Of a stretch of DNA of 64,000 nucleotides, positions 39,443 through 49,583 are shown piece by piece. The position numbers and the translations under genes are program-made. Origin of the DNA: an uncultured beta proteobacterium (GTDB taxonomy: Bacteria > Pseudomonadota > Gammaproteobacteria > Burkholderiales > Rhodocyclaceae); contig CAISOB010000056.1 of the NCBI GenBank assembly GCA_903886975.1, positions 4,935 to 68,934 on the forward strand, read 5' to 3'. How positions within the stretch are numbered: position 1 is the stretch's first letter; every line of letters starts with the position of its first letter. The notes beneath the pieces are model-generated. The model had not been told where the DNA came from, did not search any database, and worked only from the letters and a program-made list of their open reading frames with translations.

Positions 39443-39497
39443 GCGGCAATTCTCCGCCATTTATATCTGCAGTCAATTGAATCGAACTCGTAATAAT

Positions 39498-39514
39498 GAT
39501 AGGATTTTCCTATC
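39498..39514. promoter_or_regulatory. LysR-type T-N11-A operator
   Basis: GATAGGA-TTT-TCCTATC (ATAG-N7-CTAT), ending 14 nt before the lysR ATG. Confidence 0.7.
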
Positions 39515-39528
39515 GTTTGGAGACGCCA

Positions 39529-40467
39529 ATGGACTTTCGTCAATTCCGTTATTTCGTGACCACCGCCGAAGAACTGCATTTCGCACGGGCCGCCGAACGC
39601 CTTGGCATTACTCAGCCCTCGCTGAGCCAACAGATCAAATTCCTTGAGACGAGCATGGGCTTGCGGCTCTTCAACCGCGCCAAACGGCGCGTCGAACTGA
39701 CCAAAGCGGGGGCGGCTTTCCTGCTTGAAGCACGGGCGAGTTTGCAACTCGCGGACCGGGCGGTGCGCGTCGCGCAGGATACAGCGCGGGGGGAAGCAGG
39801 CCGGATCGACATCGGCATTGTCGGGTCTGTAATGTTCGATCTGAATTTCCCTCGCCTGCTCAAGGCCTATAACAGCGCACGCGAGGGCGTCCAGTTGGCG
39901 CTGCATGAGATGCCGATCCTCGCGCAACTTGAAGCCATGCACACCGGACACATCGATCTGGCCATCGTCCGCGAACCCCTGCCGCAAAGCATCCCCGACG
40001 ATCTGGATTACTTCACGCTGTCCAGCCAGCGCCTGGTCGCCGTACTGCCATTGGGGCATCCCTTGTCAGGGGCAAGCGCCGTGGCCTTGAAGGATCTCGC
40101 GCGGGACCCCTTCCTCGCCTTTCAGGACCCGGAGGGCGTCGGCATGGGGCATGTCTTGCTGACCACCTGCCGCGATGCCGGATTCGAACCGCAAATCAAG
40201 CAACGGGTTGCCGAAATCTCAACCTTGATCAGTCTCGTCGCCGTCGGCTTTGGCGTCAGCCTGGTGGTCGACATTCTCAGCCATCTGCAATTGCCAAGCG
40301 TACGGTACGTCCCGCTTGCCGGATTGGATGCGCGCTCGCAATTGCTTGTTGTCCACCGGCGCTTCGAACGTTCCGCGGCAGTACGCATCCTGCTGGAGGA
40401 TATCCGCGCCGCATCGCAGACCGTGACCAAACGCCGGGGTAAGGAAAATCGCAACGCCACGCGCTAG
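39529..40467 (+). CDS. LysR-family transcriptional regulator
   Basis: MDFRQFRYFVTTAEELHFARAAERLGITQPSLSQQI HTH. Confidence 0.96.
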   Translation: MDFRQFRYFVTTAEELHFARAAERLGITQPSLSQQIKFLETSMGLRLFNRAKRRVELTKAGAAFLLEARASLQLADRAVRVAQDTARGEAGRIDIGIVGSVMFDLNFPRLLKAYNSAREGVQLALHEMPILAQLEAMHTGHIDLAIVREPLPQSIPDDLDYFTLSSQRLVAVLPLGHPLSGASAVALKDLARDPFLAFQDPEGVGMGHVLLTTCRDAGFEPQIKQRVAEISTLISLVAVGFGVSLVVDILSHLQLPSVRYVPLAGLDARSQLLVVHRRFERSAAVRILLEDIRAASQTVTKRRGKENRNATR

Positions 40468-40508: not shown

Positions 40509-41408
40509 ATGAAATGGTTTGATGGCTTCAATTCGATTGACATTCAAGTCAACGGCGTCCAAATTCATGCCCGCGTCCCTGCGGAGGGAATTGGTAATCG
40601 ACAGCCCTTGCTGTTATTGCACGGCTATCCGCAGAGCCATGTGCTGTGGCATAAGGTGGCGCAGGCTTTGCGCCATGACTATTTCCTGGTGATTCCCGAT
40701 CTGAGGGGTTACGGGAATTCAAGCAAACCGGCGGGACTTCCAGATCACAGCAATTACAGCAAGCGCGTCATGGCGCAAGACATGGTCGCGCTAATGGACT
40801 TTCTCGGGATCGAAATCTTTCACTTGTGCGGACATGACCGCGGCGGTCGGGTGGCGCACCGATTGGCGCTGGACCACCCCGGGCGCGTGCGGCAATTATG
40901 CCTTATAGATATTGTTCCCACTTTGGACACCTACGCCGCGACCGACTTCGAATTCGCGAAAGCCTATTACCACTGGTTCTACCTCATTCAGCCCGCCCCT
41001 CTTCCAGAGGCGATGATCGGCGGCGCTCCGACCGCGTACTTGCACGCGATGCTCGGTGGCTTAGGCTCAGGCGGAATCGATTACCTCGAACCGCAGGCAC
41101 TGGCCGAATACGAACAGCACATCCGTGATCCGCAGACGGTACACGGCATGTGCGAGGACTACCGGGCAAGTGCCTCGATCGACCTTGAGCACGATCGCGA
41201 TGGCCGGTCCAGGAACGACTTGATCAAATGTCCCACCTTGATACTTGTCGGAGAGAGAGGCGTGACCTATCGACTCTTCGATGTTGCCGATCTTTGGGCA
41301 GCTCAATGCGCCTTGCCGGTCACCGTGAAGAATCTTCCGTGCGGGCATTTCGTTCCCGAACAACTCGCCGAAGAAACTTCGGGGTGTTTGCGGAATTTCT
41401 ATGGCTAA
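40509..41408 (+). CDS. Fluoroacetate/haloacetate dehalogenase (alpha/beta hydrolase)
   Basis: LLHGYPQ, GHDRGGRVAHR, YYHWF, MCEDYRA and CGHF, matching the conserved family residues. Confidence 0.88.
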   Translation: MKWFDGFNSIDIQVNGVQIHARVPAEGIGNRQPLLLLHGYPQSHVLWHKVAQALRHDYFLVIPDLRGYGNSSKPAGLPDHSNYSKRVMAQDMVALMDFLGIEIFHLCGHDRGGRVAHRLALDHPGRVRQLCLIDIVPTLDTYAATDFEFAKAYYHWFYLIQPAPLPEAMIGGAPTAYLHAMLGGLGSGGIDYLEPQALAEYEQHIRDPQTVHGMCEDYRASASIDLEHDRDGRSRNDLIKCPTLILVGERGVTYRLFDVADLWAAQCALPVTVKNLPCGHFVPEQLAEETSGCLRNFYG

Positions 41409-42392: not shown

Positions 42393-42470
42393 TAAATTTG
42401 TACGATCTGGTTGCCAGGACGACGCAGCGGTCAGGTCCTCCGTGAGTTGATAAAAAGGGGCGGGAGACGC

Positions 42471-43907
42471 ATGAGCGACATATTGCAGAACTATATCAAT
42501 GGCGGCTGGTGCGACAGTGCATCCGGCCAGACCTTTGTCAATGAGAATCCGGCGCGCCGCGGCTCGGTGCTGAACCGGGCGCAGGCATCGACCGCCGAGG
42601 ATGTCGAGGCGGCGATCGGGGCAGCGGCAACGGCGTTCAAACCTTGGAGCCGCACCCCGGTCTCCGAACGGCAGGCCGTCGTGGCCCGCTTCCTGGATGC
42701 GTTGGCGACGGCACGCGAGGAATTGGCGCGCATCGTTTCGCTCGAGAACGGCAAGACGATCGGCGAAGCGCGCGGCGAAGTCGATTCCGCCCTGCTGGAA
42801 GGCCGGCACCACCTGCAACAGATCAGCGTGTTCGCCGGGGAGTCGGCGCCGCGCGCCGAAGGCTCGATCACGGCCTGGGAGCAGTTGCACGCGCTCGGGG
42901 TCATCGGCGTAATCAGCCCCTGGAACTACCCGATGAACGTGATGTGCCGCAAGACGCTGCCCGCCCTGCTCACCGGCAACACGGTGGTCTTCAAGCCGGC
43001 CAGCTTCACGCCATGGTCGGCGGTCTTCATGGCCGGACTGTTTGAAAAAGCCGGCCTGCCGGCGGGTGTTTTCAACTGCGTGAGCGGTCTCGGCAGTACG
43101 CTGGGGAACAAACTGATCAAGCATCCGCGCGTGCGTGCGATCTCGTTCACCGGCTCGACCGAGGTCGGCCGCAAGATCCAGCTCCTGGCGGCCGAGGATT
43201 TCACGCGCACGCAACTCGAACTCGGCGGCAAGAGCGCCCTGATCGTGCTCGCCGACGCGGATCTCGATGCCGCCGTCGAAGCCACCGTCAAGGCCGGTTT
43301 CGGCTGCTCCGGGCAATGGTGCACCTCGACCAGTCGCGTGCTGCTGGCGGCGGAAATCGCCGAAGCCTACACGGCGAAACTGCTCGCCCGCTGCCAGGCG
43401 ATGAAGGTCGGCGATCCGCTCGACGCGGCCACCTCGATGGGACCCGTGGCCGGGCCGACGCAATTCGACGGCATTTCCGCGGCGATCGCCAAGGCCAAAG
43501 CGCAGGGCGCGCGACTGCGCTTTGGCGGCGTCTCGGACAACGCCGAGGGCTACTACATTCTGCCGACGGTTTTCGACGGCGTCACGCGCGACATGGCGAT
43601 CTTCCACGAGGAGATCTTTGGTCCGGTTCTCGCGCTGTCGACGGTCAGGGACCTCGACGAAGCGCTGACCTGGGCCAATGACGCCCTCTACGGCCTGTCG
43701 TCGGCGATCTTCACCAAAGACCTCGCGTCCGCCATGCGCTACGTGCGCGAGATCGAGGCCGGCATGGCGCACGTGAACATTCACAGCGGTTTCAAGACGC
43801 CGGAACTCCCCTTCGGCGGATGGAAAGAGTCGGGCTTCGGTCTGCCCGAGAACGGCAAGACCGGTCTGGAGTTCTTTGTGGAACGCAAAGCGGTTTATGT
43901 GGGGTGA
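42471..43907 (+). CDS. Aldehyde dehydrogenase (KGSA dehydrogenase/YcbD-like)
   Basis: SPWNYP, VFKPAS, SFTGSTEVG, LELGGK, GQWCTS and EEIFGPV. Confidence 0.9.
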   Translation: MSDILQNYINGGWCDSASGQTFVNENPARRGSVLNRAQASTAEDVEAAIGAAATAFKPWSRTPVSERQAVVARFLDALATAREELARIVSLENGKTIGEARGEVDSALLEGRHHLQQISVFAGESAPRAEGSITAWEQLHALGVIGVISPWNYPMNVMCRKTLPALLTGNTVVFKPASFTPWSAVFMAGLFEKAGLPAGVFNCVSGLGSTLGNKLIKHPRVRAISFTGSTEVGRKIQLLAAEDFTRTQLELGGKSALIVLADADLDAAVEATVKAGFGCSGQWCTSTSRVLLAAEIAEAYTAKLLARCQAMKVGDPLDAATSMGPVAGPTQFDGISAAIAKAKAQGARLRFGGVSDNAEGYYILPTVFDGVTRDMAIFHEEIFGPVLALSTVRDLDEALTWANDALYGLSSAIFTKDLASAMRYVREIEAGMAHVNIHSGFKTPELPFGGWKESGFGLPENGKTGLEFFVERKAVYVG

Positions 43908-43953
43908 GCGGAGAAGCTGAACCCTCATCCACGGATCACGACAAGAGAATGAC

Positions 43954-46119
43954 ATGAACGAAAAGAATATCCCCTCCCCCCCACCGCAACGGGCGCTGGC
44001 GGTTGACGATAAAGACTGGGCGGCGGTGCCGCTTGCGGAACTGCTGTGGATGTACCAGCAGATGACGCTGATCCGCGCCTTCGAACAAAAGCTGCTCGCC
44101 CTCAAGGACGAGGGCCTGGTCAACGGCCCGGTCCATACCAGCGTCGGGCAGGAAGCGATCGCGGTCGGCGCGGGTCTCGCGCTGCGCCGCCAGGATAAGA
44201 TCGGCGGCACGCATCGCGCCCACCACCAGTACCTGGCCAAGGCGCTCTGCGCCGTTGCGCCGAAGGGCTATGACCCCTTGCGCGACGGCTTGACGGGCGA
44301 GATGCAGGCGCACGTGCTGACCCTGCTCAAGGAGATCATGGGCCTCGCCGGAGGCTGCAGCGGCGGGCGCGGCGGGTCGATGCACCTGTTCAACAAGGAG
44401 ATCGGCGTCGCCGGCACCAACGCCATCGTCGGCGGCGGCGTGCCACCCACCACAGGCGTCGCCTGGGCCGACCACATGCGCGGCGAGGACTGGGTGACGG
44501 TCTGCTTCTACGGCGACGGCGCCGTCTACCAGGGCGCGGTTCACGAGGCTTGCAACATTGCCTCGCTGTGGGACGCGCCGATCATCTATGCGATCGAGAA
44601 CAACCACTTCGCGGTCGGGACTTCGCGCGACGACGGTTGCTCGGCAAAGCAATTGAGCCATGTGGCGGCGGCCTACGGCATGCCGGGCTTCCAGGTCAAC
44701 GGCATGGACCCGCTCTCCGTCAAGCTGGCCATCGAGCACATTCTGGCCGACCGCAATAACCTGCCGTGCTTCCTCGAAATCGACACCTGGCGGCACTTCC
44801 ATCACGCCGGCGGCATTCCCGGCAGCGCGTTCGGCTACCGCAGCAAGGAAGCCGAGGCGGAGTGGCACGCCCGCGATCCGCTGACCCAGTTCGCGGCGCG
44901 GCTGCGTCAGCGCAGCGTCAGCGACGCGGACATCGGCAAGCTGCAATCGCAAGCGCAGGCCTCGGTGGACGCCGCCGCGGCGGAGGTGCTGACCACCAAC
45001 GCCGCCGGCGCCAAGGCGATTCGCGAAGAGCTCTGGCCGACCGCCGAGAGCGCGCCGCGCGGCTTGCGCGACGAAGGTCTCGGCCGCATCGGCCCGTTCG
45101 TCGAGGCCGCCGATTGCGCCTGCACACGCGAGATCAAGTACTCGGACGCCATCACCGAAGTCACGGGGCGTTGGCTGGAAATCGACCCGGCCGTCGTGGT
45201 GATGGGCGAAGAAGTCTGCAACATGGGTGGTGGCGCCTACGGCGCGACCAAGGGGCTCGCCAAGATCTACCCCGGCCGCGTGCGCAACACCCCGATCACC
45301 GAGGCCGGCTTCTGCGGCATTGCCGGCGGCGCGGCAATGAACGGCATGCATCCGGTCGTCGAACTGATGTTCTCGAGCTTCGGGCTCGTCGCCGCCGACC
45401 AGCTCTTCAACCAGATCGGCCAGCTCGGCCATATTTACGGCGGCCACGTCTCCGTGCCGCTCATCTGCCGCACGCGCGTGGCGGCCGGACTGGGTTACGG
45501 CGCGCAGCACAGCCAGGATCCGGTGGCGCTCTTTTCGATGTTCCCGGGCTGGCGCATCGTGGTCCCGACGAACAGTTTCGACTACATCGGCCTGTTCAAT
45601 GCGGCAATGAAGCTCAAGAGCCCGACGCTGATCGTCGAACACCACGGCTTCTACGGCGAAGCCGGAATGATTCCCGCCGGAGCGGCCGACCACGTCGTCG
45701 AGATCGGCAAGGCGGCCGTGCGGCGCGAAGGCACGGACGTTACGGTGCTCGCCTACGGCTGGGGCGTGCGGCTCGCCGAGCGCGCGGCGGCGCAACTTGC
45801 GGAGGAAGGGCTGTCAGCGGAGGTGATCGACTTGCGCACGGTGGACGATGCGTCGATGGACTACGAAACGATCGGCCGCTCGCTGCGCAAGACCGGCGCG
45901 CTGCTGACCGTCGAAGAAGCGCAGGCCTGCAACGCGATCGGCGCGAAGCTCATCCGCGCCTGCGAACAGCGCTGGTTCGATTATCTCGACGCGCCGGCGG
46001 CGAGCATCAACGCCCTCGATATCCCGCTGCCCGTGTCGCGGCGTCTGGAGTTGTTGTGTTTGCCGGACCTGGAACGGACGGTGGCATTGATGCGAAAGGC
46101 GGCGCGCAGGGAAGTGTAG
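43954..46119 (+). CDS. Fused 2-oxoacid/acetoin dehydrogenase E1 alpha-beta subunit
   Basis: GRGGSMH and GDGA...ENN TPP motif (alpha); NTPITE.GF.G, VELMF and HSQ (beta); no lipoyl domain. Confidence 0.9.
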   Translation: MNEKNIPSPPPQRALAVDDKDWAAVPLAELLWMYQQMTLIRAFEQKLLALKDEGLVNGPVHTSVGQEAIAVGAGLALRRQDKIGGTHRAHHQYLAKALCAVAPKGYDPLRDGLTGEMQAHVLTLLKEIMGLAGGCSGGRGGSMHLFNKEIGVAGTNAIVGGGVPPTTGVAWADHMRGEDWVTVCFYGDGAVYQGAVHEACNIASLWDAPIIYAIENNHFAVGTSRDDGCSAKQLSHVAAAYGMPGFQVNGMDPLSVKLAIEHILADRNNLPCFLEIDTWRHFHHAGGIPGSAFGYRSKEAEAEWHARDPLTQFAARLRQRSVSDADIGKLQSQAQASVDAAAAEVLTTNAAGAKAIREELWPTAESAPRGLRDEGLGRIGPFVEAADCACTREIKYSDAITEVTGRWLEIDPAVVVMGEEVCNMGGGAYGATKGLAKIYPGRVRNTPITEAGFCGIAGGAAMNGMHPVVELMFSSFGLVAADQLFNQIGQLGHIYGGHVSVPLICRTRVAAGLGYGAQHSQDPVALFSMFPGWRIVVPTNSFDYIGLFNAAMKLKSPTLIVEHHGFYGEAGMIPAGAADHVVEIGKAAVRREGTDVTVLAYGWGVRLAERAAAQLAEEGLSAEVIDLRTVDDASMDYETIGRSLRKTGALLTVEEAQACNAIGAKLIRACEQRWFDYLDAPAASINALDIPLPVSRRLELLCLPDLERTVALMRKAARREV

Positions 46120-46465: not shown

Positions 46466-46532
46466 GTCATTCCGGCGAACGCCGGAATCCAGTAAAGGCG
46501 ACGAACTGGACACCGGCTTTCGCCGGTGTGAC
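46466..46532. repeat. REP doublet, copy 3
   Basis: Reverse complement of copy 2 with 2 mismatches over 67 nt. Confidence 0.9.
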
Positions 46533-46601: not shown

Positions 46602-48425
46602 TTAAAAGAACATGGCTGGAAGGACCAGCGTAAACCACGGAAACGCCGTAATAATGAACAGCCCGACGAGCAGACAAACGAGATACGGCATGAACGGCAC
46701 GATTGATTTCCCGATGTCCAGCTTGGCAAAGGCGCAGGCGATGTACATCCCCATGCCGAGCGGCGGCAGGAAAAGTCCGATCCCCAGCGAGGCGATCACC
46801 AGGATACCGAAATGCAACTGGCTGACTCCGAATTGCGCGCACAGGGGCAGAAAGATCGGCACGAGAATCAGCATCGCGGGAAGGCCTTCCAGGATGCAGC
46901 CGATGAGGATGAACGTCAGGTTGCACAACACAAGGAAAATCAGCGGCGAGCTTGACAGATGGACGATCGTTTGCCCGACCATTTGCGGGACCTGGGCGAT
47001 CGACAGAATCCAGGAGAGGATCGAGGCGGTCCCGACGAGGAACATCACGCTGCCCGTCATGATCGAAGATCGCAGCAGAATGGGGATCATGTCGCTCCAT
47101 TGGATTTCCCGGTAGACAAACTTCCCGAGAATGAAGGCGTAGAGCACGGCGATCACGGAAATTTCCGTCGGCGTCGCCGCCCCCGCGATGATGCCGCCTA
47201 AAATGATCACGGGAAGCATCAGCGGAACGATGGCCCCTCCCGTTGCCTTGACGACTTGCTTGAATGTGGCCTTTTCATCGACGGGGAGACCCTGCCTGAC
47301 GGCTTGATAATAGATCAGCGCCATGATGCAAAGGGAGATGACGATGGCCGGGAGAAACCCGCCCATGAACAGCGCGCCGACCGAGATGCCGGTCATTCCA
47401 CCGAGGACCACCATGAGAATGCACGGCGGCACGAGAATCCCCATCGCCGTGGCCGCTGAGACAATGGAAACGCAGGTTTCCGACGAATACCCTGCCTTTT
47501 TCATCGCTGGAATCAGCAGTGAAGCGATCGCCGAGACGTCGGCCACCGTCGAGCCGGAAATTCCGGAGAAGAAATATTCCGCGACCACCACGACCATTCC
47601 CAGGCCACCGCGGATATGACCCACCAGAACCTTCGCCAGAGCGACGAGCCGCACGGTCACCCCGCCGATATTCATCAGTTCGCCGGCCAGGATAAAGAAG
47701 GGCACGGCCAGAAGCGGAAAGGAATCGACCCCGCCGAACAGACGGGTATGGGTCACGACGAGCGGAATCTTCCCTTGCAAGAGCAGGAATTGCAGGCCGC
47801 CGATGCCAATCGCAAACGCGATCGGCATGCCGGCAGCGATGAAAACGAAAAAGGAAACGAGCATCACGGCAACGAGATTCCCGTTGGAGAATCCCCCTCT
47901 GCCGAAGACGAGGTAAAGGAATGCGCCCAGGGCGATGGAAGCGAGAAAGGAAACAACGAATATTTTTCTCTCCATCTTCAAGGCGCTAATCAGCAGATAG
48001 ATGGCCATCAGGGTGCCGGACAGCGCGATGGCGAAATAGAGATAGGAAAAGGGGATCATCATCACCGGCGTTAAATCGGTTGCCGTTTTCTGCATCATCA
48101 CGCCGCCCATGTAGGCGAGATAAATGCAGAAGTAGAGGATCAGGAAATCGGCGATCGCCGTGACATAAACCCGCGCCGCGGGTTTGAAGAGGCTGTGCAA
48201 CAGCGTTTCAACGGCGATATGGCCCTTCGTCTTGAGGGCCAGGAAGGCTCCCATAAAGGAGATCCAGATGAACAGGAGGCGCGCCATCTCTTCTGTCCAG
48301 TCGATCGGACTGTCGAAAACATAGCGGCTGACGACCTGGGCAAAGACGCATGCGTTCAATACCACCATGGCAATTGCAATGGTCCAGTCGAAAGTTTTCT
48401 CAGCGTGATTCTGCAAGGACGACAT
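46602..48425 (-). CDS. Fused TRAP transporter permease DctQ-DctM
   Basis: WTEEMARLLFIWISFMGA...GHIAV (DctQ), then LLAVPFFILAGELMN, ISGSTVAD and GILVPP (DctM). Confidence 0.92.
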   Translation of the reverse strand: MSSLQNHAEKTFDWTIAIAMVVLNACVFAQVVSRYVFDSPIDWTEEMARLLFIWISFMGAFLALKTKGHIAVETLLHSLFKPAARVYVTAIADFLILYFCIYLAYMGGVMMQKTATDLTPVMMIPFSYLYFAIALSGTLMAIYLLISALKMERKIFVVSFLASIALGAFLYLVFGRGGFSNGNLVAVMLVSFFVFIAAGMPIAFAIGIGGLQFLLLQGKIPLVVTHTRLFGGVDSFPLLAVPFFILAGELMNIGGVTVRLVALAKVLVGHIRGGLGMVVVVAEYFFSGISGSTVADVSAIASLLIPAMKKAGYSSETCVSIVSAATAMGILVPPCILMVVLGGMTGISVGALFMGGFLPAIVISLCIMALIYYQAVRQGLPVDEKATFKQVVKATGGAIVPLMLPVIILGGIIAGAATPTEISVIAVLYAFILGKFVYREIQWSDMIPILLRSSIMTGSVMFLVGTASILSWILSIAQVPQMVGQTIVHLSSSPLIFLVLCNLTFILIGCILEGLPAMLILVPIFLPLCAQFGVSQLHFGILVIASLGIGLFLPPLGMGMYIACAFAKLDIGKSIVPFMPYLVCLLVGLFIITAFPWFTLVLPAMFF

Positions 48426-48530
48426 TATTCAGCACACCTTTCGTATCGGGTGAAGACGTGTTACATGAGTGGAGAGGAATCGCCAAGGCGAGTCCTCTCC
48501 ACTGTGTCACTGACTTATGGGTTGAGAAAC

Positions 48531-49583
48531 TTAGTTCTTGCCGTACAGTTCTTTTCTGGATTTATCGATCTCTTTGAAGAGATAATCAACCCATTTCGCC
48601 GGAACCTTGGTCTTAACCCATTCGACGACCTTAGGCTGGGTTGCCTTGGCGAAGGAATCCAACTCGGCGGGGGTCGGCACATAAACCTCCATCCCCTTCT
48701 TGATCAGTTCATCCACACCAATCGCCGATGTGTACTGCTGCATGCCTCTATGAACAAGACCGGACGCCACTGCAGAATCTTCGACGATCCTGCGCAGATC
48801 CTTCGGCAGCTTCTGGAAGAAGGCATCATTCATGAAGGTGAAGTCAATGCTGTAGAGGTGTCCGTCCAGCGTCAGGTACTTTTGCACCTCATAGAACTTC
48901 ATGGCCACGATCAGGGAAACCGGGTTCTCCTGCCCATCGACAACTTTTTGCTGCAATGACGTGTAAGTTTCAGCCCAGGCAACAGGCGTCGGCGAGGCGC
49001 CCAGAGCCCTTACCATCTCCATGTGGGCCGGGTTCTCCATCGTCCTCATCTTCATGCCTTTCATATCCTCAGGCTTATGGATGGCGCGAACCCGGTTGGT
49101 GAAGTTGCGGTACCCGTTTTCGGTAATCGTGAGAGTCCTGACACCGGTCTTCTTCCGCATCTCCTCCATCAGGTCCCTGCCGAAAGGCCCGTCAAGGACC
49201 TTCCACGCGAGGGGCGCCGACTCGAAGAGATAGGGAATCCCCAGCACCAGGATTTCCGGAAAAATCCCAGGAACCGAACCTTCGCTCACATTGCACATCT
49301 CGACGGTACCCATCTTGACGGCTTCAAGCTGTTCGCGCTCGGATCCCAATTGGTTGGCCGGGTAAATCTCGACCTTGAGCCGGCCGTTCGATGCACTCTC
49401 GACCAGGTTCTTGAAGGTAACCGCGTCCCCATGCGCCGGGCCAAAAACCGGGTCCGGTGGATCGCCGTGGGCAAACTTGATCACAATGGGGGTCTCGGCG
49501 GCGGAAACTGCACTTAAACCCGACAGCGAAAGACTTAAAGCAAGGATAGAAACAGCCATCCCGAATAATTTTCTAATTCTCAT
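48531..49583 (-). CDS. dctP: TRAP solute-binding protein DctP
   Basis: IYPANQLGSE, NGYRNF, KMRTM (carboxylate-binding Arg) and VDGQENP. Confidence 0.93.
   Translation of the reverse strand: MRIRKLFGMAVSILALSLSLSGLSAVSAAETPIVIKFAHGDPPDPVFGPAHGDAVTFKNLVESASNGRLKVEIYPANQLGSEREQLEAVKMGTVEMCNVSEGSVPGIFPEILVLGIPYLFESAPLAWKVLDGPFGRDLMEEMRKKTGVRTLTITENGYRNFTNRVRAIHKPEDMKGMKMRTMENPAHMEMVRALGASPTPVAWAETYTSLQQKVVDGQENPVSLIVAMKFYEVQKYLTLDGHLYSIDFTFMNDAFFQKLPKDLRRIVEDSAVASGLVHRGMQQYTSAIGVDELIKKGMEVYVPTPAELDSFAKATQPKVVEWVKTKVPAKWVDYLFKEIDKSRKELYGKN

Follow-up and report, generated by a model that had tools for sequence, protein, structure and literature searches.

A fused E1-type thiamine enzyme without an E2 or E3 of its own, set in a VOC-aldehyde dehydrogenase gene module found in several bacterial phyla, may catalyze an undescribed catabolic step

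The 64,000-nucleotide stretch of contig CAISOB010000056.1 analyzed here (the window), from an uncultured, Propionivibrio-like betaproteobacterium, carries a gene for a single-chain fusion of the alpha and beta parts of an E1 component, a thiamine diphosphate (ThDP) enzyme, preceded by genes for an aldehyde dehydrogenase (ALDH) and a glyoxalase-fold protein of the vicinal oxygen chelate (VOC) type. In textbooks, E1 components belong to three-enzyme complexes that act on pyruvate, 2-oxoglutarate, branched-chain keto acids or acetoin; an E1 that lacks its own E2 and E3 and is fixed to an ALDH/VOC module suggests a thiamine-dependent step that has not been described. The explanation we prefer, to which, taken as a whole, we assign a probability of roughly 0.4, is that VOC-ALDH-E1ab (E1ab being the fused alpha/beta E1) constitutes a self-contained, horizontally mobile catabolic module, in which an auxiliary E1 would free an aldehyde for ALDH and transfer the acyl moiety to an E2/E3 core whose genes lie elsewhere. 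The features discussed are listed in Table 1.

The alpha part of the E1 occupies approximately residues 1 to 350 and is joined through a linker to the beta part (approximately residues 393 to 716), with Pfam E-values of 1e-54 for PF00676 (E1_dh), 7e-26 for PF02779 (Transket_pyr) and 6e-26 for PF02780 (Transketolase_C); no lipoyl or E2/acyltransferase domain was detected by Pfam in the 721 residues. Among structures in the Protein Data Bank (PDB), the alpha and beta chains of pyruvate dehydrogenase (PDH) and branched-chain ketoacid dehydrogenase (BCKDH) E1 match at 1e-35 to 1e-57. Residue-level alignment to human PDH E1 alpha and beta, combined with an alignment of 30 family members (mean column identity of 66%), placed the catalytic residues: the GRGGSMH motif, the ThDP/Mg motif G187-D188-G189...N216-N217, which aligns to the corresponding human motif, E419 (within GEEV), equivalent to the cofactor-activating human beta-Glu59, and H284 and H519, equivalent to alpha-His263 and beta-His128, are all invariant. 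The position of the phosphorylatable human Ser264 is occupied by Ala, and that of human alpha-Met200 by an invariant Val. Because the ThDP motif and the Glu/His/His set are invariant and map onto human PDH E1, the protein is predicted to have the full catalytic equipment of an alpha/beta-type E1 (as in PDH, BCKDH and acetoin dehydrogenase), namely the domain set, the ThDP motif with its Glu and the two active-site histidines. It is no PDH orthologue, since it scores far under the curated equivalog cut-offs that define membership of that family (248 bits versus 394 for TIGR03182, alpha, and 264 versus 454 for PRK11892, beta).

The ALDH open reading frame (ORF) extends back to position 42411, and the start at 42471 is favored because the resulting 478 aa equal the length of the orthologues in loci L015 and L022 (L designates the loci compared, C the contigs of the host's own genome). 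The ALDH scores below all NCBIfam equivalog cut-offs, the top match being a KGSADH-like model at 443 bits versus a cut-off of 770, and its closest PDB entries are generic BADH/ALDH2 types; neither comparison yielded a clue to the substrate. Its orthologues, at 73 to 88% identity, stand directly upstream of E1 in other phyla. The VOC protein shows, in the alignment, a His/Glu/His/Glu pattern of metal ligands, and its orthologues (58 to 84% identity) adjoin ALDH-E1 in L015, L016, L023 and L017; VOC genes also flank E1 in L045 and in the sister clade discussed below, on either side of E1 across loci. Judging from this gene order, VOC is a conserved member of the module. A preliminary description of the window had recognized a unit of ALDH and, after a 46-nt gap, a 721-aa E1 fusion without a lipoyl domain, ending before a REP (repetitive extragenic palindrome) element and convergent genes for a tripartite ATP-independent periplasmic (TRAP) transporter, with no E2 or E3 in the window. 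ORFs and Pfam domains agree with the gap and the fusion, and the unit does end before palindromes at 46468-46529 and TRAP genes at 46602-49583. Nor did an E2 profile, built from nine E2 proteins, match an E2 or lipoyl ORF when all frames of the entire window were searched, and for E3 a lipoamide-dehydrogenase model gave, on this contig, only a weak FAD-motif match in an unrelated flavoprotein. The pairing of ALDH with E1 is likewise real, but that account left uncounted the VOC gene, which is conserved with both.

The neighborhoods of 91 loci (the window, 9 genome contigs, 3 phylum-search loci and 78 metagenome contigs) were clustered, with the genes in relatives' loci called simply as longest ORFs. 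In 47 loci the sequence reaches 1.5 kb or more upstream of E1; ALDH immediately precedes E1 in 27 to 29 of these, and a tungsten-type aldehyde ferredoxin oxidoreductase (AOR; PF01314/PF02730) replaces it in three (L047, L072 and L080), so that one or the other stands there in approximately 30 of the 47. AOR also occupies the ALDH position in the gene order of L118, which is not one of the 47. The AOR-bearing contigs presumably derive from anaerobes. This nonorthologous replacement of ALDH by AOR indicates that aldehyde oxidation is the coupled step.

A recurrent cluster has genes for a short-chain dehydrogenase/reductase (SDR) and a LarA-like protein on one strand and, on the other, GntR, a PF04199 "cyclase" hydrolase, RhaT, SDR, ALDH and E1ab, followed by GH78 rhamnosidases or a malic-enzyme-like gene; variants include GH95, Amidohydro_2 (PF04909), a zinc-dependent alcohol dehydrogenase (Zn-ADH), an M24/creatinase-like protein and, in some loci only, an FAH hydrolase. 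In view of the RhaT, GH78, GH95, SDR, lactonase-type and LarA-like neighbors, the family is, as predicted from gene context, part of 6-deoxyhexose (rhamnose/fucose-type) catabolism in most hosts. The nonphosphorylative route for such sugars runs through an SDR and a lactonase and then either a dehydratase and an aldolase or a 2-keto-3-deoxyrhamnonate (KDR) dehydrogenase and an FAH hydrolase. Neither a sugar-acid dehydratase nor an aldolase appeared in the core that recurs among the clustered loci. The rhamnose-type cluster recurs in metagenome contigs L068, L069, L076-L078 and L104, where no dehydratase or aldolase lies within 10 kb and the PF04199 protein occupies the place expected of a lactonase.

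In the mechanism that we favor, ThDP would attack the carbonyl either of a 2-oxo acid or of an acetoin-like ketol derived from a sugar (e.g., CH3-CO-CHOH-R, from an oxidized 6-deoxy end). Cleavage beside the carbonyl would set free an aldehyde fragment, to be oxidized to the acid by ALDH (by AOR in anaerobes), and the acyl-ThDP would be handed on to the lipoyl arm of a core of E2 and E3, which in the host's own genome would be one of those on C21, C14 and C98. In the Propionivibrio-like host, the module would serve a carboxylate imported by the adjacent TRAP transporter. Here we infer the substrate, the cleavage of a ketol, the direction of the coupling to ALDH and the E2 used. Ketol cleavage is the best fit because the constant partner is an aldehyde oxidizer and a plain 2-oxoacid dehydrogenase reaction yields no aldehyde, whereas an aldehyde is formed when a ketol is cut as in acetoin cleavage. 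The CH3-CHOH-CHOH end of 6-deoxy sugars is convertible to a ketol by an SDR, for which SDR-type gluconate 5-dehydrogenases provide a precedent. A more specific version, which we consider unlikely as it stands, would have the sugar acid of a 6-deoxyhexose first oxidized close to the methyl end and the resulting methyl ketol CH3-CO-CHOH-R then cut in the manner of acetoin dehydrogenase into an acetyl unit and a C4 acid-aldehyde, the latter being oxidized by ALDH or AOR to a tartrate-type diacid for the malic-enzyme-like neighbor. If true, this would amount to a rhamnose/fucose route needing neither dehydratase nor aldolase, of which the Propionivibrio version would be a trimmed form acting on a TRAP-imported acid.

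The E1 gene is patchily distributed. Its nearest relative (92% identity) lies on a contig of an uncultured Propionivibrio, and of 24 further genomes from that genus only 1 has the gene; the next relatives, at 72 to 84% identity, come from metagenome-assembled genomes (MAGs) of Planctomycetia, Lentisphaerae, Akkermansia and Kiritimatiellae, and 7 of the 401 genomes in a Verrucomicrobiota sample are carriers. The clade, which is well supported, is also found in many metagenome contigs, and within it the window E1 nests among sequences of the Planctomycetes-Verrucomicrobia-Chlamydiae (PVC) group. From this distribution and the tree it follows that the gene moved between phyla. The GC content of the unit (65 to 67%, versus 61% for the genome) was set aside as a sign of transfer, the excess being only mild. 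In the same tree (53 rows), an E2-linked clade is sister to the E2-less one (SH-aLRT, 95), and the outgroup, canonical fused E1s, is likewise E2-linked; since both are, the topology is consistent with a single loss of the cis-encoded E2.

This history bears on an alternative that we hold to be somewhat unlikely, namely that the enzyme is a stand-alone ThDP lyase or decarboxylase which has lost the need for E2, cleaving a ketol or decarboxylating a 2-keto sugar acid and protonating the bound fragment off as a second aldehyde, with ALDH or AOR taking up the aldehyde(s). It would account for the lack of cis-encoded E2 and E3 in the vast majority of clade members, with the sister clade retaining both; for the monophyly of the clade, in keeping with one loss of the cis E2; for the transfer of a compact VOC-ALDH-E1 unit between phyla; for the ferredoxin-linked AOR of some loci; and for the tight and persistent adjacency of an aldehyde-oxidizing gene. 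On the other hand, sister-clade operons on plasmids of cultured bacteria (approximately 42% identity) have the order SDR-E1ab-VOC-E2-LpdA, with a semialdehyde-type ALDH, and E2 is not wholly absent from the clade itself. In L045, whose E1ab (721 type) is 77% identical to the window E1 and lies inside the subclade of >70% identity holding the window protein, the genes form a tight operon, E1canon-E2-VOC-ALDH-E1ab-VOC (E1canon being a canonical E1), with gaps of 1 to 9 nt or overlaps; an ORF with a lipoyl domain begins 86 nt past E1, at the contig end, in L071; E2 lies 0.9 kb upstream in L020 and L082; and in Akkermansia genome G043 the sole E2 belongs to the gene string of E1, 10 kb upstream of it. 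An E2 was present in all 12 carrier genomes tested, compared with 303 of the 401 genomes in the Verrucomicrobiota sample. Both histidines of reductive acylation are invariant, although they are also used in decarboxylation, and no alpha/beta-type E1 is known that functions physiologically in the absence of E2, which counts against independence. On the comparison of these genomes and loci, the use of an E2/E3 core in trans appears more likely than independence of E2.

Several of the expectations raised from the window alone can be set against these results. That homologues would accompany ALDH rather than E2 holds for the clade, in which ALDH or AOR is the usual neighbor, and the opposite case, that homologues are normally followed by E2 (which would make the unit in the window a truncated operon), fails for the clade; in the sister clade, homologues are indeed followed by E2. 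Of the two roles first proposed for the E1, borrowing an E2 from elsewhere has become the better supported (by the cis E2 of the sister clade, by L045 and L071 and by the 12 carrier genomes), and acting alone has been weakened. The suggested 2-keto sugar acid as substrate fits both the 6-deoxyhexose context and the TRAP link, and a count of the E2 paralogues, which had been put forward as a check, gives three E2 sets in the genome, none of them orphan.

Those sets, on contigs C98, C14 and C21, are complete with E1, E2 and E3. The one on C21, in which the fused E1ab has a long N-terminal extension, is the sole other alpha/beta-type and sugar-linked set in the genome; it is flanked by a divergent LysR gene, with TAL/FSA, xylose-isomerase-like and PfkB kinase genes on the opposite strand. 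Two E1s are orphans in this genome, namely the window protein and a second aceE-type (homodimeric) enzyme (C120:2300-4960) with no adjacent E2. Against transfer of the acyl group to such a resident core, and against the accompanying order of events, the following have to be weighed: (i) E2 and E3 are missing, over distances of up to 10 kb, from approximately 50 clade loci that represent several phyla; (ii) the module crosses phyla at 77 to 92% identity, which is awkward for an enzyme docking on divergent resident E2s; (iii) the host genome has no E2 lacking its own E1; (iv) the C21 E2 is only approximately 30% identical to the L045 E2, and therefore the partner E2 cannot be named; (v) the statistic on the presence of E2 is weak, the background being 76% and related genomes being nonindependent, and is too weak to decide E2 dependence; (vi) none of the genes of the sugar cluster (SDR, lactonase-type, RhaT, GH78, GH95 or FAH) lies beside the module in the window, and there is no SDR there to form the ketol; and (vii) the ALDH step could come before E1 instead of after it.

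The last of these points leads to another reading, that of an ALDH-fed but conventional 2-oxoacid dehydrogenase E1, in which a 2-oxoaldehyde of the methylglyoxal type (e.g., from lactaldehyde or a deoxy-sugar fragment) would be handled by VOC and oxidized by ALDH to a pyruvate-like 2-oxo acid, which E1ab would then decarboxylate onto an E2 in trans. Several observations would agree with it: the family models with the top scores are those of PDH E1 alpha ("y" type) and PDH E1 beta; the best PDB match is human PDH E1; the VOC ligand set is that of glyoxalase I-type enzymes; and genes of pathways that produce lactaldehyde and pyruvate (FAH, D-2-hydroxyacid dehydrogenase and LarA-like) lie near the module in Akkermansia. 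We nevertheless regard it as distinctly unlikely: the scores remain far under the PDH cut-offs given above; at least one E2 is present in every carrier genome tested; the host genome already has aceE-aceF-lpd and Akkermansia G043 a canonical fused E1ab-E2, making an extra pyruvate E1 redundant; the invariant Val at the Met200 position means that the pocket differs from that of human PDH E1; and VOC and ALDH would deal with one substrate by two parallel routes, an odd pair to conserve jointly.

Since the fold is common to E1, transketolase and DXS, a carboligase or transferase of the transketolase/DXS kind, transferring a ThDP-bound unit of two or more carbons from a ketol to an aldehyde with neither redox chemistry nor E2, was considered as well. 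TAL/FSA-like genes do adjoin the module in L015, L041 and Akkermansia, and split transketolase-like pairs abound in the host genome. The nearest relatives with known partners are, however, linked to E2 and E3, the E1-specific histidines are conserved, and the constant partner is an aldehyde oxidizer and no aldolase or isomerase, all of which makes this reading very improbable. Finally, the missing E2 and E3 in the window and a rearrangement beside the gene (the TRAP genes are inverted relative to L015, and genes downstream in L015 lie on C57) could indicate a decaying remnant of an E1-E2-E3 operon without a function of its own. The 721-codon frame is intact with all catalytic residues kept, however, and the same E2-less arrangement occurs in approximately 50 loci across phyla, with 72 to 92% identity among the close ones; this conservation effectively refutes a remnant.

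Four known systems offer comparisons for the module with an E2/E3 core used in trans. The acetoin dehydrogenase system consists of the E1 AcoA/AcoB, the E2 AcoC and the E3 AcoL, together with butanediol or acetaldehyde dehydrogenases. With it, the module would share an alpha/beta-type ThDP E1, the proposed C-C cleavage of a ketol into an aldehyde and an acyl unit and the presence of SDR and aldehyde-oxidizing genes in the clusters; it differs in its fused alpha and beta parts, the lack of E2 and E3 in cis, a deoxy-sugar or TRAP context and the absence of acetoin or butanediol genes. The NCBIfam matches of E1 included no Aco-specific model, and the context is not aco-like; the proposed resemblance is mechanistic only. 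With the alpha2beta2 PDH E1 (human PDHA1/PDHB; Geobacillus stearothermophilus) the protein shares the GDG...NN motif, the equivalents of Glu59, His263 and His128 and the best sequence and PDB matches, whereas it is a single chain with a linker of approximately 45 aa, has a 2-residue insertion in the loop of the active-site His and Val for Met200, and has no E2 of its own. Canonical fused E1ab proteins (Akkermansia L032, 668 aa, with E2; C21, 855 aa, with E2 and E3) have the same fusion order and Pfam domains, and on Akkermansia-type contigs both E1 types occur in one gene string, but the module E1 is only 29 to 35% identical to them and set apart by a long branch, and the canonical proteins always have their own E2. 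The 2-oxoglutarate dehydrogenase OdhA/Kgd of Corynebacterium and Mycobacterium, which shares the PDH E2 (AceF/DlaT), provides a precedent for an E1 that lacks a dedicated lipoylated E2 and uses the core of another complex; unlike the module E1, OdhA forms homodimers of the E1o type and carries a fused succinyltransferase domain, its architecture being unrelated and its substrate one of central metabolism.

The uncharacterized sister clade, annotated as "alpha-ketoacid dehydrogenase subunit alpha/beta", resembles the family in its approximately 42% full-length identity, in the same fusion and in having VOC, SDR and semialdehyde-type ALDH as partners; it differs in having its own E2 and LpdA directly downstream and in its branched-chain-type ABC transporters and shikimate-dehydrogenase-like genes, with no rhamnose or fucose genes. 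Its operons, which also carry a GntR regulator, are found in cultured bacteria and would make the family as a whole tractable to study, and the module itself is a compact three-gene test object. Taken together, these features suggest a plug-in E1 extending the substrate range of the resident lipoyl core, or else a thiamine-dependent cleavage of deoxy sugars that is missing from current pathway maps; in either case, the reading of the "BCKDH E1" annotations common among PVC bacteria, a group of major importance in degrading algal and mucin glycans, would change. We found no paper on this E1 family; the article PMC13524815 concerns a different nickel enzyme and does not mention the E1.

The convergent TRAP genes of the window have orthologues of 87% (fused permease) and 86% (DctP) identity in the congener contig L015, where TRAP-P, TRAP-QM, VOC, ALDH and E1 form one codirectional operon. 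A TRAP linkage is found in all three Propionivibrio-like contigs, L041 among them, in three different arrangements. The solved structures nearest to DctP are 4p9k/4pak, 4pdh and 4pdd; the ligands in these TRAP-protein structures are probably D-erythronate and pantoate. The inversion of the TRAP genes relative to L015, together with the position on C57 of the genes that follow E1 in L015, points to a rearrangement next to the E1 gene, which has separated those genes from it in the host genome. Two REP-like palindromes mark the point where the gene order departs from that of L015. The genes for LysR and an alpha/beta hydrolase upstream were rejected as members of the module, having no counterparts beside it in L015, L041, L042 and L016.

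Table 1. Positions of the genes and other elements discussed (positions in the window unless a locus or contig is named)
Feature	Position	Strand	Basis or remark
LysR regulator	39496-40467	+	Pfam
Alpha/beta hydrolase, 41 nt after the LysR gene	40509-41408	+	Pfam
VOC (glyoxalase-fold) protein, 148 aa	41753..42199	+	PF00903 at 9e-18
ALDH, NAD(P)-dependent, non-acylating, 478 aa	42471..43907	+	PF00171 at 1.5e-159
Single-chain fused E1 alpha/beta ThDP enzyme, 721 aa	43954..46119	+	PF00676 + PF02779 + PF02780
Two REP-like palindromes between E1 and TRAP	46468-46490, 46510-46529	.	ATTCCGGCG-AA-CGCCGGAAT and ACACCGGC-TTTC-GCCGGTGT, read from sequence
TRAP fused DctQ-DctM permease, convergent with E1	46602..48425	-	PF04290 + PF06808
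TRAP DctP-type solute-binding protein	48531..49583	-	PF03480 at 3e-88
sucA-type E1, E2, E3	Contig C98
aceE, E2, E3 (lpd)	Contig C14
TAL/FSA-like (604 aa), SDR, E2, E3, fused E1ab of 855 aa	C21:44831-52724 = L125:6831-14724	-
AOR upstream of fused E1	L047:3041-4795, L072:3077-4813, L080:1716-3446, L118:3540-5282		Metagenome contigs
Sister-clade plasmid loci	L119 Caballeronia insecticola p2; L120 Pseudomonas oryzihabitans; L122 Phaeobacter inhibens; L123 Rhodococcus opacus; L121 Paenarthrobacter ureafaciens

The 4-Mb host genome also contains five split transketolase-like pairs, on C32 (approximately 126.0 to 127.7 kb), C41 (approximately 108.5 to 110.2 kb), C52 (approximately 0.35 to 1.8 kb), C57 (approximately 5.5 to 7.0 kb) and C103 (approximately 4.6 to 6.4 kb). 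The pair on C57 sits with TAL-like, SDR and Zn-ADH genes, the same genes that stand directly after E1 in L015.

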